Position numbers and translations under genes: made by a program
The notes under the pieces: model-generated
Told to the model about the DNA's origin: nothing
Seen by the model: only the letters and a program-made list of their open reading frames with translations
The model's database searches: none
In this document: piece after piece, positions 7,789 to 59,811 of the stretch
How positions within the stretch are numbered: position 1 is the stretch's first letter
How the letters are laid out: each line of letters opens with the position of its first letter
Source of the DNA: Octopus vulgaris
Lineage: Eukaryota
Assembly: GCA_951406725.2 (NCBI GenBank)
Contig: OX597828.1
Span: 36,208,001 to 36,272,000 of the forward strand
DNA length: 64,000 bases
Reading direction: 5' to 3'

Positions 7789-8274
7789 CTATTTATGCGT
7801 ATATATTATATATAGATGGAGGCATAACTGTGTGGTTCAGAAGTTTGCTCCCCAACCACATGGTTTTGATTTCCGTCCCGCTGTGAAGCATATTGTGCTG
7901 ATGTCTTCTACTATAGCTCTGGGCCAACCAAAAAGCCTTGTGAGTGGATTTGGTATACAGAAACTGAAAAAAAGGCCCCAGTGTGTGTGTGTGTTTGTGT
8001 GTGAGAAAGAGAGAGACAGACAGACTGTATCAAGTGTCCTTCTTGTCTTGACATCATGTGACAGTTGTAAACAAACATCACCATCATACAAGCAGCGTCC
8101 AACTCCAATCTTCTATGAAAATATGTCTGACTCATGTGAAATCATGTGTTGAAACGGATACTATTGTATTTCAGGATTTTCCAATTCATTTCTTTTACTT
8201 ATTTCAGTCATTTGACTGCGGCCATGCTGGAGCACCATCTTTAGTCAAGCAATGGTGGGGGGACAAACATATAC

Positions 8275-8316
<42 letters not shown>

Positions 8317-8518
8317 CAATAATAATTCTCTAAAAGGGGATATAGACAGTAACTGCTCGATAACATAAGGGACTAAAGCCATCTGAATATGGCTAGGGAC
8401 AGGGCAGGGTGGTGGGGGTGTTACTGTTGCATTTAGCCCCAGGCGAACATCGACGTCACCAGAAAGGCTCGACACCGTCACGGTGCCCTTAACCTGCAAA
8501 GGGAGGTAATTCCCCGAT

Positions 8519-8592
8519 GAAGCGGAAACCACACACGGACCATGGTTTCAAGGTGTATTGCCTATCATCGGCGTGTGGTAGGCCTCCGCTTC
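8519..8592 (-). ncRNA. Hammerhead-like ribozyme copy (minus strand)
   Basis: Reverse complement of 9606-9679. Confidence 0.72.
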
Positions 8593-8878
8593 CTCGACGA
8601 ATTCTCACTCTGCAGGATTTTCTTATATAGATTTTCAAGCAAAATACATTTGCTGATTTCGAAAATCTGTTCGAAAGCAATAATAATTCTCTAAAAGGGA
8701 TATAGACAGTAACTGCTCGATAACATAAGGGACTAAAGCCATCTGAATATGGCTAGGGACAGGGCAGGGTGGTGGGGGTGTTACTGTTGCATTTAGCCCC
8801 AGGCGAACATCGACGTCACCAGAAAGGCTCGACACCGTCACGGTGCCCTTAACCTGCAAAGGGAGGTAATTCCCCGAT

Positions 8879-8952
8879 GAAGCGGAAACCACACACGGAC
8901 CATGGTTTCAAGGTGTATTGCCTATCATCGGCGTGTGGTAGGCCTCCGCTTC
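8879..8952 (-). ncRNA. Hammerhead-like ribozyme copy (minus strand)
   Basis: Reverse complement of 9606-9679. Confidence 0.72.
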
Positions 8953-9605
8953 CTCGACGAATTCTCACTCTGCAGGATTTTCTTATATAGATTTTCAAGC
9001 AAAATACATTTGCTGATTTCGAAAATCTGTTCGAAAGCAATAATAATTCTCTAAAAGGGATATAGACAGTAACTGCTCGATAACATAAGGGACTAAAGCC
9101 ATCTGAATATGGCTAGGGACAGGGCAGGGTGGTGGGGGTGTTACTGTTGCATTTAGCCCCAGGCGAACATCGACGTCACCAGAAAGGCTCGACACCGTCA
9201 CGGTGCCCTTAACCTGCAAAGGGAGGTAATTCCCCGATGAAGCGGAAACCACACACGGACCATGGTTTCAAGGTGTGTGGTTTCAAGGTGTGTGACCATG
9301 GTCCGTGTGTGGTTTCCGCTTCATCGGGGAATTACCTTTGCAGGTTAAGGGCACCGTGACGGTGTCGAGCCTTTCTGGTGACGTCGATGTTCGCCTGGGG
9401 CTAAATGCAACAGTAACACCCCCACCACCCTTGCCCTGTCCCTAGCCATATTCAGATGGCTTTAGTCCCTTATGTTATCGAGCAGTTACTGTCTATATCC
9501 CTTTTAGAGAATTATTATTGCTTTCGAACAGATTTTCGAAATCAGCAAATGTATTTTGCTTGAAAATCTATATAAGAAAATCCTGCAGAGTGAGAATTCG
9601 TCGAG

Positions 9606-9679
9606 GAAGCGGAGGCCTACCACACGCCGATGATAGGCAATACACCTTGAAACCATGGTCCGTGTGTGGTTTCCGCTTC
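9606..9679 (+). ncRNA. Type I hammerhead-like ribozyme (variant core), predicted cleavage after GUC at 9660
   Basis: Stem I GAAGCGGAGGCC-UAC-CACACG / CGUGUG-U-GGUUUCCGCUUC; core CCGAUGA 9627-9633; stem II (U)AGG-CAAUACA-CCU(U); GAAA 9649-9652; stem III AC-CAUG-GU; C17 at 9660. Deviations from canonical: U4C and a U.U pair at 10.1/11.1. Confidence 0.72.
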
Positions 9680-9965
9680 ATCGGGGAATTACCTCCCTTT
9701 GCAGGTTAAGGGCACCGTGACGGTGTCGAGCCTTTCTGGTGACGTCGATGTTCGCCTGGGGCTAAATGCAACAGTAACACCCCCACCACCCTGCCCTGTC
9801 CCTAGCCATATTCAGATGGCTTTAGTCCCTTATGTTATCGAGAAGTTACTGTCTATATCCCTTTTAGAGAATTATTATTGCTTTCGAACAGATTTTCGAA
9901 ATCAGCAAATGTATTTTGCTTGAAAATCTATATAAGAAAATCCTGCAGAGTGAGAATTCGTCGAG

Positions 9966-10039
9966 GAAGCGGAGGCCTACCACACGCCGATGATAGGCAA
10001 TACACCTTGAAACCATGGTCCGTGTGTGGTTTCCGCTTC
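9966..10039 (+). ncRNA. Hammerhead-like ribozyme copy (cleavage after 10020)
   Basis: Identical to 9606-9679, offset +360. Confidence 0.72.
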
Positions 10040-10325
10040 ATCGGGGAATTACCTCCCTTTGCAGGTTAAGGGCACCGTGACGGTGTCGAGCCTTTCTGGT
10101 GACGTCGATGTTCGCCTGGGGCTAAATGCAACAGTAACACCCCCACCACCCTGCCCTGTCCCTAGCCATATTCAGATGGCTTTAGTCCCTTATGTTATCG
10201 AGCAGTTACTGTCTATATCCCTTTTAGAGAATTATTATTGCTTTCGAACAGATTTTCGAAATCAGCAAATGTATTTTGCTTGAAAATCTATATAAGAAAA
10301 TCCTGCAGAGTGAGAATTCGTCGAG

Positions 10326-10399
10326 GAAGCGGAGGCCTACCACACGCCGATGATAGGCAATACACCTTGAAACCATGGTCCGTGTGTGGTTTCCGCTTC
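10326..10399 (+). ncRNA. Hammerhead-like ribozyme copy (cleavage after 10380)
   Basis: Identical to 9606-9679, offset +720. Confidence 0.72.
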
Positions 10400-10685
10400 A
10401 TCGGGGAATTACCTCCCTTTGCAGGTTAAGGGCACCGTGACGGTGTCGAGCCTTTCTGGTGACGTCGATGTTCGCCTGGGGCTAAATGCAACAGTAACAC
10501 CCCCACCACCCTGCCCTGTCCCTAGCCATATTCAGATGGCTTTAGTCCCTTATGTTATCGAGCAGTTACTGTCTATATCCCTTTTAGAGAATTATTATTG
10601 CTTTCGAACAGATTTTCGAAATCAGCAAATGTATTTTGCTTGAAAATCTATATAAGAAAATCCTGCAGAGTGAGAATTCGTCGAG

Positions 10686-10759
10686 GAAGCGGAGGCCTAC
10701 CACACGCCGATGATAGGCAATACACCTTGAAACCATGGTCCGTGTGTGGTTTCCGCTTC
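10686..10759 (+). ncRNA. Hammerhead-like ribozyme copy (cleavage after 10740)
   Basis: Identical to 9606-9679, offset +1080. Confidence 0.72.
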
Positions 10760-12709
10760 ATCGGGGAATTACCTCCCTTTGCAGGTTAAGGGCACCATGA
10801 CGGTGTCGAGCCTTTCTGGTGACGTCGATGTTCGCCTGGGGCTAAATGCAACAGTAACACCCCCACCACCCTGCCCTGTCCCTAGCCATATTCAGATGGC
10901 TTTAGTCCCTTATGTTATATATATATATATATATACGACAGGTTTCTTTCAGTTTCCGCCTACCAAATCCACTCACAAGGCTTTGGTCGGCCCAAGGCTA
11001 TAGTAGAAGACACTTGCCCAAGGTGCCATGCAGTAGAACTGAACACAGGACCATGTGGTTGGTAAGCAAGCTACTTACCACACAGCCACTCCTAGTCATT
11101 TTCTTTTTGCCAAATAAACACACACACCATATATATATATATATATATATATTTACCATTCCCAAGCAGACGCTAGAGTATGATGCAGTCCTTGACTCCT
11201 TGGATCCTTGTCAAACTGCCCAACCCATGCCAGCATAGAACATGGGGATTAAATGAAGATTATCATCATAATATACATATATGGCATCATGGCTGTTTGG
11301 TAAGACGCTTGCTTCTCAACCACATGGTTCCCGGTTGAGTCCCACCATGTGACACTTTGGGCAAGTGTCTTCTACTATAGCCTCAGGCCAACGAAAGATT
11401 TCTGAGTGGATCTGGTAGACAGAAAGTGAAAGAAGCCTGTCGTGTGTGTGTCCTCACCATGACCACTTGACCGGTGTTGATAAAATAAGTACGAGTTGAA
11501 CACTGGGGTCAAAATCCTCAACCCTTCCCCAAAATTTCAGGCCTTGTGCCTACAGTAGAAAAGATCATTATTATTATTATTATTATTATTATCGCAGTGA
11601 GCTGGCAGAATCATCAGCATGCCAGACAAATGCTTAGGAGCATTTCTTCCAACTTCATGTTCTGAATTCAGATTTCAATGCAGTTGAATTTGCCCTTCGC
11701 CCTCTTGGGGTTGGTAAAACAAAGTACCAATCAAGTACTGGTGTCAATGCAATCACCTAATCCCTGGCCTTGTGCCTACATTAGAAAGGGTTAGGATCAT
11801 CAACACATTTGGCAAAATGCTTAGCAACATTTTGTTTGGCTTTACATTCTGTGTTCAAATTCTATCCAGGTTGACTTTACCTTTCACCCTTTTGGGGTTA
11901 TTAAATTAAGTACCAGTCAAGCACTTGAGGGGAGAGGGATTCAGTATAATTGACTAGCCAAAACTTCAAGCCATGTGCCAATAATAGAAAGGAACACTAC
12001 TACTACTATCACCACCACCCTTTACAACAACTATCATCATCAACATCGTCATTCACCACTACAACCACAATGGAAGCTTCTACTTATGATAGTTGTTCAC
12101 CCCTACTAGAAATAGAAGTGAAACCTTCCACAAATCTACTGTCTTAGAAGGAGAGGATGCATTGGATAATGTGGTCTTGGGTCTCCTGCACAATGGTTTA
12201 AAAAAATGGGGTGGTTCATGGCCGGAATGTCTATGCCAAAATTTCAAACCATGTGCCTATAATAGAAAGGACTACTACAACCACCAGCACCAGCACCACT
12301 ACTACAACAACAAAAACTACTGAGTAGTCAAAGCAGTAATTCTGGATTAAATATGTCATGGTATAGGCATCACTTCACAGTTACAAAAGTATTGTTGTAA
12401 CAAGGAATTCCATGATGTGAAACCTATTTTTCCACGAACTTCCATGTTACATAGAAGTTAAATGAAGCCTGGAACCATGGGAAAATATTTTTTTTTACAT
12501 ATGCAGGCCACCTATATTTAGTTACTGTTCACCTTTGTGGCTTTAGTTTGAATTCTAACAGAACCAATTAGTTTTTTATTTGTTTGTCTTTAGGGAGGGA
12601 ATGAAAAAACTATCGCCCATATATTGAAATTGATCCAGTTGACTGTGAACCTCCCTCTGTCCCACCCATACAAATCTACAGTTTTTTCATGCTGTGTCTC
12701 AGACTTTAA

Positions 12710-22913: not shown

Positions 22914-23546
22914 AGAAGTGGGGGAGCACCATAGCCGTGTGTTGAGAGGAATTCTTTGGGGTTTGGATAATTCACCTTTGGAAACATGGGTGGTTCGTTC
23001 AACATCCTTAAACAATCCTTATTCAAGTACCTTTTGAGTGGGATGGGCTACTCGACCAGAAGAAAATTCTAACTGGACCTCACCTGCAAGGTCATTCAGT
23101 GTTTATCTTGATACAAGGTCACCATGTTGTTCACATATGGTTGTGATGCATGTGCCGGGTGTACCCTTATCAGACGGGTAGTCATAATGGGTATACTGGG
23201 CTTCGTATATTTTACCCCAGTACCACTTTGATGGCATGCATTGCTCTCAACACTCAATAATAATAATAATAACAATAATAATAATAATAATATCTTATTC
23301 AGGGACCTTTTGAGTGGGATGGGCTACTCAACCTGAAGAAAATTCTAACTGGGCCCCACCTGCAAGGTCATGCGCTGTTTATCTGGATATTAGATCACTA
23401 TGTTGCGCACATATAGTTGTGATGCATGTACCTGGTGTACCCTTATCAGATGGGTAGTCATGATGGGTATATTGGGCTTTATATATTTTTACCCCAGTTT
23501 CACCTTGATGGCATGCACTGCTCTCTCACTCAAAAATAATAATAAT
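22914..23546 (+). mobile_element. Two tandem 5'-truncated family D copies ending in (AAT)n
   Basis: Match the 3' portion of 42053-42619, with different 5' starts (about 22914 and 23293). Confidence 0.75.
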
Positions 23547-25194: not shown

Positions 25195-25976
25195 ATGCCA
25201 GCGCCGCCTGACTGGAGCCCGTGTTGGTGACACGTAAAAGCACCAACCGATCGTGGCCGTTTGCCAGCCTGCTCAGGGCCCCTGTGCAGGGCCCCTGTGC
25301 CGGTGGCACGTAAAAAACACCCACTACACTCATGGAGTGGTTGGCATTAGGAAGGGCATCCAGCTGTAGAAACACTGCCAAATCAGACTAGAGCCTGCTG
25401 AAACCTCCATGACTTACCAGACCCCGGTTGAACGTTAAATGATGATGATGATACTATCAGCAAAAAAGAGCCAAGACACTACATCATCATCATCATCATC
25501 ATCGTTTAACGTCCGTTTTCCGTGCTAGCACGGGTTGGACGGTTTGACCGGGGTCTGGGGAGCCAGGGGCTGCTCCAGGCCCCAGTCTGATCTGGCAGTG
25601 TTTCTACAGCTGGATGCCCTTCCTAACGCCAACCACTCCGTGAGTGTAGTGGGTGCTTTTTACGTGCCACCTGCACAGGTGCCAGAGGGGTCTGGCATCA
25701 GCCACGATCGGTTGGTGCGTTTTATGTGCCACCGGCACAGAAGCCAGTCGAGGCGGTGCTGGCATCGGCCACGTTCGGATGGTGCTTTTTATGTGCCACC
25801 GGCACAGAAGCCAGTCGGGGCGGTGCTGGCATCGGCCACGTTCGGATGGTGCTTTTTATGTGCCACCGGCACAGAAGCCAGTCGAGGCAGTTCTGGCATC
25901 GGCCACGTTCGGATGGTGCTTTTTATGTGCCACCGGCACAGAAGCCAGTCGGGGCGGTGCTGGCATCGGCCACGTT
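25195..25976. mobile_element. Tail-to-tail family C pair (plus 25195-25452, minus 25482-25976); minus copy has about 4 x 67-bp internal tandem repeat
   Basis: ATGTGCCACC recurs at 25724, 25791, 25858 and 25925. Confidence 0.8.
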
Positions 25977-56828: not shown

Positions 56829-57740
56829 CATCATCATCATCATCATCATCATTTAGCGTCCGTTTTCCATGCTAGCATGGGTTGGACGGTTCAACTGGGG
56901 TCTGGGGAGCCCGAAGGCTGCACCAGGCCAGTCAGATCTGGCAGTGTTTCTACAGCTGGATGCCCTTCCTAACGCCAACCACTCCGAGAGTGTAGTGGGT
57001 GATTTTATGTGCCACCGACACAGGTGCCAGACGAGGCTGGCGAACGGCCACGCTCGGATGGTGTTTTTATGTGCCACCGACACAGGTGCCAGACGAGGCT
57101 GGCAGACGGCCACGCTCGGATGGTGTTTTTATGTGCCACCGACACAGGTGCCAGACGAGGCTGGCAGACGGCCACGCTCGGATGGTGTTTTTATGTGCCA
57201 CCGACACAGGTGCCAGATGAGGCTGGCAGACGGCCACGATCGGATGGTGTTTGTTACGTCCCCAAAGCACGGAGGCCAGTCTATGCGGTACTGGCTACGG
57301 CCACGTTCGGATGATTTTCTTGTGTGCCACCGGCACTGGTACCACAAAGATACAAATTCCATTTATGTTCATCTATTTTGATTTGATTTGATTTGATTTT
57401 CACTTGCCTCAACAGGTCTTCACAAGTGTCACAAGAAGGAAGGTATGCACAGGTGGACTGTCTACGTCGCCGGGTCTTCGGATGGTGTCTTTATGTGCCA
57501 CCGACACAGGTGCCAGATGTGGCTGGCGAACGGCCACGATCGGATGGTTTTCTTGTGTGCCACCGGTACTGGAACCACAAAGATACAAATTCCATTGATG
57601 TTCATCTATTTTGATTTGGTTTGATTTTGATTTTGATTTTTTGATTTTCACTTGCCTCAACAGGTCTTCACAAGTGTCACGCGTGTCACACACTTGCCTC
57701 AACAGGTCTCCACAAGTGTCACACACTTGCCTCTGCCTCA
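56828..57740 (-). mobile_element. Family C element with 4 x 62-bp internal tandem repeat and further internal duplications
   Basis: ATGTGCCACC at 57007, 57069, 57131 and 57193; a 57300-57430-like block is repeated at 57530-57680. Confidence 0.8.
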
Positions 57741-59319: not shown

Positions 59320-59703
59320 TTACTCTCTCTTTTACTTGTTTCAGTCATTTGACTGTGGCCATGCTGGAGCACCGCCTTTAGTCGAGCAAATCGACCCCAG
59401 GACTTATTCTTTGAAAGCCTAGTACTTATTCTATTACCACTAAGTTACGGGGACGTAAACACACCAGCATCGGTTGTCAAGCGATGTTGGGGGGACAAAC
59501 ACAGACACACAAACATATACACACACATACATATATACGATGGGCTTCTTTCAGTTTCCGTCTACCAAATCCACTCACAAGGCTTTGGTCAACCCAAGGC
59601 TATAGTAGAAGACACTTGCCCAAGGTGCCATGCAGTGGGACTGATCCCGGAACCATGTGGTTGGTAAGCAAGCTACTTACCACACAGCCACTCCTGCGCC
59701 TAT
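59320..59703 (-). mobile_element. Family A tRNA-derived SINE, near full length, directly downstream of the U6 copy
   Basis: Head ATAGGCGCAGGAGTGGCTGTGTGG, B-box-like GGATCAGTCCC, tail GAAACAAGTAAAAGAG. Confidence 0.9.
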
Positions 59704-59704
59704 T

Positions 59705-59811
59705 AAAAATATGGAACGCTTCGCGGATTTGCATGTCATCCTTGCGCAGAGGCCATGCTAAACTTCTCTGTACCATTCCAATTTTAGAATATGTACCGCC
59801 ATAGCTAGTAT
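59705..59811 (-). pseudogene. U6: Full-length U6 snRNA pseudogene
   Basis: Minus strand ATACTAGCTATGGCGGTACATATTCTAAAATTGGAATGGTACAGAGAAGTTTAGCATGGCCTCTGCGCAAGGATGACATGCAAATCCGCGAAGCGTTCCATATTTTT. ACAGAGA box and AGC triad kept; multiple substitutions including CpG decay; no clear upstream TATA box. Confidence 0.93.

Follow-up and report, generated by a model that had tools for sequence, protein, structure and literature searches.

A 64,000-nucleotide stretch of the Octopus vulgaris genome (GCA_951406725.2, contig OX597828.1, positions 36,208,001 to 36,272,000 of the forward strand; called the window here, with positions counted from its first letter) contains two opposed tandem arrays of a 360-bp repeat within the TA tract of a short interspersed nuclear element (SINE). 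The repeat fits a non-LTR (long terminal repeat) retrozyme, and the enzyme of a Penelope-like element (PLE) probably made the insertion: it would have made a nick in each strand of the TA tract, started cDNA at two fixed sites that lie 44 nt from each other on retrozyme RNA and copied 2.7 and 4.5 units, the two cDNAs being joined at the ribozyme palindrome. Published papers are cited below for the excerpts of their text that were available.

Two opposed arrays in the TA tract of one SINE

Repeat scans revealed two opposed tandem arrays of period 360 (8315-9276 and 9295-10918, 99% matches), which are mutual reverse complements over up to 944 nt. Phases of the 360-bp unit are numbered in ribozyme sense, phase 1 being position 10002. 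The parts of the locus are as follows.

8190..8284, minus strand: half of the host SINE, likely the 3' half, with an internal deletion of ~110 bp (orientation judged from tail-like repeats there)
8285..8315, no strand: (TA)15, left portion of the target tract, read from the sequence
8315..9276, minus strand: left arm, 962 bp, 2.7 units, from phase 1 (9276) to phase 241 (8315), in the third unit
8315..8359, minus strand: one-sided extension, likely a PLE-type tail, 44 nt (45 bp as assembled, with one extra G)
8538-8571 and 8898-8931, minus strand: hammerhead cores of the left arm, predicted cut after 8538 for the first
9277..9294, no strand: inversion junction spacer, 18 bp, made of a 12-nt sense-strand match and a 14-nt antisense-strand match
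9295..10918, plus strand: right arm, 1624 bp, 4.5 units, from phase 11 (9295) to phase 197 (10918), in the fifth unit
9627-9660, 9987-10020, 10347-10380 and 10707-10740, plus strand: hammerhead cores of the right arm, predicted cut after 9660 for the first
10916..10935, no strand: (TA)10, right portion of the target tract, read from the sequence
10936..11092, minus strand: other half of the host SINE, likely the 5' half, collinear with the left half

The coordinates, lengths and ends of the two-arm array agree, by repeat scans and inspection of the sequence, with those given in an earlier note on this DNA. Both outer arm ends abut pure TA without intervening sequence (microhomology of 1 nt and 3 nt), and no TA or other target DNA lies between the arms. 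The flanks are collinear with the sequences on either side of the central TA/CA tract in 11 of 11 two-sided SINE copies extracted from the window. This bears out the proposal of the earlier note that they are the two collinear halves of one SINE, and a single insertion into a single SINE is supported. SINE centres make up five of the 42 other TA tracts in the window with at least six units, so chance joining of two loci is unlikely. The host SINE presumably resembles octopus SINEs. A possible duplication of 11 to 12 bp, a weak match interrupted by a single-base gap within a T run, surrounds the whole host SINE (8187-8197 and 11097-11108).

A repeat unit that fits a non-LTR retrozyme

The 360-bp unit has a folding z of -4.9. 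A type I hammerhead descriptor matched once in each whole unit (6/6), nowhere else in the 64 kb and in none of 5000 shuffled units; it has to permit C at position 4 and one extra base before stem II, for which the available text of PMC4209133 was followed. A stricter descriptor, with stem II starting right after A9, gave no site in the window and matched 4 of 3000 shuffles. Rfam returned no hammerhead match, neither at the gathering score nor at E up to 10. The motif comprises a 6-bp proximal stem I with 12 further pairs, a U.U pair with a 3-bp stem II, and a stem III of 2 bp that is capped by a palindromic tetraloop. Stem III and its loop are able to pair between two copies, with a computed energy of -12.6 kcal/mol.

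Other features of the retrozyme class are also present: the unit is non-coding, tandem and in the range of ~150-450 bp, each whole unit has a hammerhead motif, and the family is dispersed and multi-copy. The longest frame in the unit, of 90 amino acids, has no credible relative in protein searches. LTR-type direct terminal repeats were not found in the sequence by repeat scans, in which the primer-binding site and polypurine tract were not separately searched. By structure the 360-bp repeat thus fits a non-LTR retrozyme, cleavage being a prediction.

Metazoan non-LTR retrozymes likewise have a non-coding tandem unit of 170-400 nt with one type I hammerhead each, and are dispersed in high copy number (PMC7229834; bioRxiv 10.64898/2026.07.22.740005). 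The octopus motif resembles the text description of the axolotl ribozyme HHR_Amex2, with its U.U at the base of stem II and its 2-bp stem III with a tetraloop (PMC7229834). Unlike the metazoan retrozymes described in those excerpts, the octopus unit has C at core position 4, and the locus consists of two arms in inverted orientation, only one of them tailed, in a TA target. Retrozymes, a proposed PLE helper and copying of circles beyond unit length have already been published (PMC4209133; PMC7229834; bioRxiv 10.64898/2026.07.22.740005), and pairs of minimal hammerheads 100-700 bp apart on opposite strands have been noted (PMC4209133). In cephalopods, 235 hammerhead-1 matches were listed for the giant squid (PMC6962438), while a paper on the repeats of Octopus vulgaris reported recently active PLE families and, in the main text available, neither hammerheads nor retrozymes (PMC13282606).

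Family members are not uniform in the core. Positions 3 and 4 (9627-9628) are both T in the same contigs, which form the majority in public sequencing run X13 (8171 of 8710 depth) and ~2% in run X1. Subfamilies differ in the catalytic core.

An ATG 21 nt before the right-end phase opens a 35-codon frame (10176-10283); it was considered as the start of a PLE open reading frame (ORF) and rejected. The 90-amino-acid frame had no matches among longer proteins, and its three matches among 1.84 billion representatives were all repetitive and unrelated on inspection. In the 35-codon frame the two ends would come roughly after codons 7 and 22, which is reminiscent of the 12 and 22 amino acids in a rotifer pseudo-LTR (pLTR; PMC3846280), and protein searches were unsupportive.

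Outer ends and a one-sided tail

The outer ends of the arms (phases 241 and 197) are 44 nt apart in the unit, and the extension is found on the left arm alone. Copies of PLEs often consist of an inverted 5'-truncated copy with a tail of 30-40 bp at one end only, and the Naiad PLEs prefer (TA)n (PMC8557442). Rotifer Penelopes have head-to-head inversions, junction palindromes and a 31-bp tail (PMC3846280). The protein of an Anolis PLE cuts AT-rich DNA on both strands, extends each of them and uses two internal RNA start sites, whose spacing equals the tail (PMC11167929). From this comparison, the 44-nt offset would be better explained by a PLE tail lying between two fixed start sites than by random permutation.

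The earlier note had taken the outer ends to be permuted. This does not hold up well, because the offset matches a PLE tail and because a contig from another study (run X5) exits the unit at 9478 (phase 197, as at the right end) into ATATATAT, that is, into AT repeats. Its suggestion that a PLE acted as helper is strengthened by the cutting and extension of both strands at AT-rich DNA by the Anolis enzyme (PMC11167929). The architecture is less novel than it had implied, since PLEs routinely show head-to-head inversion, a tail at one end and a bias towards TA. The 44-nt difference between the ends, the position of the inner ends inside the hammerhead core and the spacer of templated pieces go beyond that note.

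The locus shares with insertions of endonuclease-bearing (EN+) PLEs the head-to-head inversion, the one-sided outer extension, the junction palindrome, the AT-rich or (TA)n target and a hammerhead upstream of the ends. It differs from them in lacking an ORF, in having arms that are each a multimer of a unit the size of a pLTR, and in its tail length of 44 nt, where 30-40 is usual. No frame of at least 150 amino acids overlaps the insertion, so it lacks the ORF for reverse transcriptase plus GIY-YIG that marks an autonomous PLE. Retrozymes have been proposed to be non-autonomous derivatives of PLEs (bioRxiv 10.64898/2026.07.22.740005; PMC7229834). The TA-targeting Naiads are described as having no canonical hammerheads (PMC8557442), so the helper is more likely to be from another clade, for example Neptune. 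Non-autonomous Chlamys elements such as MRC1 also form head-to-tail multimers; unlike the octopus locus, they occur in green algae, target C or CA and mostly have no hammerhead, and no two-arm multimer is described for them in the text available (PMC8557442).

Inner ends in the hammerhead core

The inner ends of the arms (phases 1 and 11) both fall within the hammerhead core. They are upstream of the predicted cut at phase 19, by 19 and 9 nt, which indicates that both cDNAs crossed the cut site. The two pieces of the spacer overlap by microhomology and finish at the stem III palindrome. We infer that the spacer arose by repeated microhomology-primed synthesis during joining.

Private differences number five in 2586 bp, including a 4-bp deletion at 9334 and a substitution at 9843, and none is mirrored between the arms. 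Two of the five are single-base homopolymer indels and could be consensus errors. In units 1 and 2 of the right arm, none of the three private differences is mirrored in the left arm, which disfavours a fold-back copy. Few and unmirrored differences suit a young event with two separate syntheses. The view of the earlier note that two cDNAs, one per target strand, were joined head to head is thus supported.

That note had compared the event with twin priming by L1, in which one primer acts at the RNA's 3' end and one internally (PMC2912911). As in L1, both target ends appear to have primed cDNAs whose far ends were joined by short complementarity to give a head-to-head inversion (PMC2912911). 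In contrast, the two parts of an L1 inversion cover different stretches of the RNA, from the poly(A) end and from an internal site (PMC2912911), whereas the octopus arms start near the same point, repeat the same sequence and have no poly(A). Between the outer end of either arm and the inner end of its partner there is a distance of 130 or 164 nt. With such gaps, arms that overlap in content and no poly(A), the locus does not show the contiguity of adjacent stretches that belongs to L1-type twin priming.

Related contigs in public runs

Short-read contigs from four of 24 runs (X1, X2, X5 and X13) were compared over 9225-9665. The 360-bp family is abundant and variable, with 1339, 478, 642 and 48 matching contigs in the four runs, and the hundreds of variant contigs per DNA run indicate a dispersed multi-copy family. 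Three candidate inversion joints were seen in X1 (9270 to 9464, 9273 to 9380, and 9513/9575, at depths of 97.6, 39.9 and 44.9). In two of them one end falls inside the hammerhead core, at phases 7 and 4, and the third has no stated orientation; detection of these joints may favour the core, as the compared stretch had antisense strand only there. An X5 contig spans the head-to-tail junction at a depth of 813. X5 is RNA by guess, and a circle, a multimer and DNA look alike in such a contig. Exact-pattern scans gave no match in metagenome contigs or viral contigs.

A drop in summed depth across 9478/9479 (in X5, X13 and X2, not in X1) was considered and not counted as evidence, because summed depth is not copy number and a C>G change at 9479 can also break contigs. 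Among loose contig ends at 9335-9500, divergent subfamilies are more alike from ~9373 onward than elsewhere. The terminal repeat of a helper PLE could be among these subfamilies.

A model for the insertion

On the biochemistry known for PLEs, the endonuclease would have cut both strands within (TA)n. Each target 3' end would then have primed reverse transcription inside the RNA, at phase 197 and phase 241, which would leave a tail on one arm only. Each cDNA would have run through several intact ribozyme sites, and several rounds of microhomology-primed synthesis at the palindrome of stem III may have linked the two cDNA ends, giving the 18-bp spacer. Passage through several intact ribozyme sites would mean that the template was either a circle or an uncleaved multimer. 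A circle and an uncleaved linear multimer lead to the same DNA and are about equally probable as templates; a weak ribozyme would favour the multimer. The more specific proposal that a PLE dimer primed both TA strands at two fixed sites on circular retrozyme RNA, circling 2.7 and 4.5 times, is accordingly put forward tentatively, as a possibility on the doubtful side. The two start sites are likely to be fixed, judging from one contig that ends at phase 197 and from ambiguous contig ends at phase 241.

Several observations weigh against PLE-driven insertion from two fixed sites. The ribozyme core has C at U4, a change said to reduce hammerhead activity in vitro (PMC3088659), and the constrained ribozyme fold (-24.9 kcal/mol) is 7.4 less stable than the minimum-energy fold (-32.3 kcal/mol). 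For random pairs of ends, a spacing of 25-50 nt is expected in ~14% of cases, which makes the offset alone modest evidence, and 44 nt is slightly over the 30-40 bp cited for PLE tails. A target-site duplication cannot be read within TA, where up to 20 bp could be concealed, a duplication of the 10-17 bp associated with L1 twin priming included. The X5 end at 9478 is one of 24 loose ends listed (with 162 more) and could be this very locus in another animal, and the contigs that end at 9522, the phase of the left end (two in X5, one in X13), may stem from merging of graph paths. Among the contigs listed (with 2496 more pieces), none spans the inversion junction of this locus; the depth of X13 is zero in the bin 9285-9299 and X5 has no coverage left of 9295. 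The helper PLE was not found, the long frames of the window having been listed without a domain scan and the 90-amino-acid frame of the unit being without a credible relative.

Four other explanations were weighed. Priming may have taken place at arbitrary AT-rich points of a circle through TA microhomology, with ends permuted between loci, as an analogue of L1 twin priming. Both ends are indeed AT-rich with 1-3 nt of microhomology, the offset could arise by chance at the frequency given above, and retrozyme circles are documented in other animals (PMC7229834). The contig from a different study that leaves the unit for AT repeats at an identical phase, the match of the offset to a PLE tail and the gaps of 130 or 164 nt, where L1 cDNAs would be contiguous, make this explanation unlikely. 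A single cDNA that copied itself after folding at the palindrome of stem III (self-priming), or later inversion of a pre-existing array through break repair, would account for the palindrome and the templated snippets at the junction, and self-priming has been proposed for PLE inversions (PMC3846280). However, a copy made by folding back should mirror the three private differences of right-arm units 1 and 2 (one of them a homopolymer indel, and so maybe a consensus error), the right arm is longer than the left, and folding back gives no reason for the 44-nt offset of the outer ends. An origin of this kind is quite unlikely.

Two separate insertions into one TA tract, or a short inverted PLE-type insertion whose arms grew later by unequal crossover, would dispense with multi-unit cDNA. 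The family is of high copy number (48-1339 contigs per run) and local tandem growth has been proposed (bioRxiv 10.64898/2026.07.22.740005). On the other side, the arms have no target DNA between them, they carry a single haplotype at positions that are variable among family members, and private differences are not repeated in neighbouring units, contrary to the tendency expected of crossover. This history seems very unlikely. Long near-perfect inverted repeats are prone to read and assembly artefacts, and two loci might have been joined or a read folded back, as the absence of a listed contig across the junction and the two homopolymer indels among the five private differences would allow. The flanks, however, do not mirror each other and instead complement each other as the two halves of one SINE, chance pairing would have a frequency of ~1% given the five SINE centres among 42 TA tracts, the outer ends differ between the arms, and similar joints are present in X1 at depths of 40-98. 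An artefact is the least likely of the four.

Other features of the window

A full-length U6 copy (59705-59811) lies within a feature at 59328-59811 on the minus strand, and its 3' T run leads straight into a SINE head. Either U6 and SINE form one chimeric retrocopy, or a SINE has inserted at the terminator of U6. Further tandem arrays are present at 23018-23546, 25652-25976 and 56998-57252, with periods of 276, 67 and 62 bp, and the hammerhead descriptor matches none of them.

Implications for the spread of retrozymes

The case for mobilization of animal retrozymes by PLEs has so far rested on ribozymes that both possess, on co-occurrence and on pLTR similarity; the mechanism has been called open (bioRxiv 10.64898/2026.07.22.740005). 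Searches of the open-licence PMC and bioRxiv literature found no retrozyme multimer that has two arms, a tail on one side and a TA target; Repbase, subscription papers and supplements may contain such cases. The locus combines known kinds of feature at one site, and is a useful test case, through which an open question becomes one of counting.

An insertion scar offers another kind of evidence on PLE mobilization of retrozymes and is a possible footprint of their spread. If insertion by a PLE enzyme from two fixed start sites is correct, two fixed 3' ends 44 nt apart are predicted in every young copy of the 360-bp family. As the repeated unit is short, arm length can reveal whether tandem arrays form at insertion or expand later. 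If the template was circular, the locus would be a direct genomic footprint of rolling-circle reverse transcription of animal retrozyme circles by PLE enzymes, and the palindromic stem III of the hammerhead would seed the head-to-head joins that are typical of PLEs.

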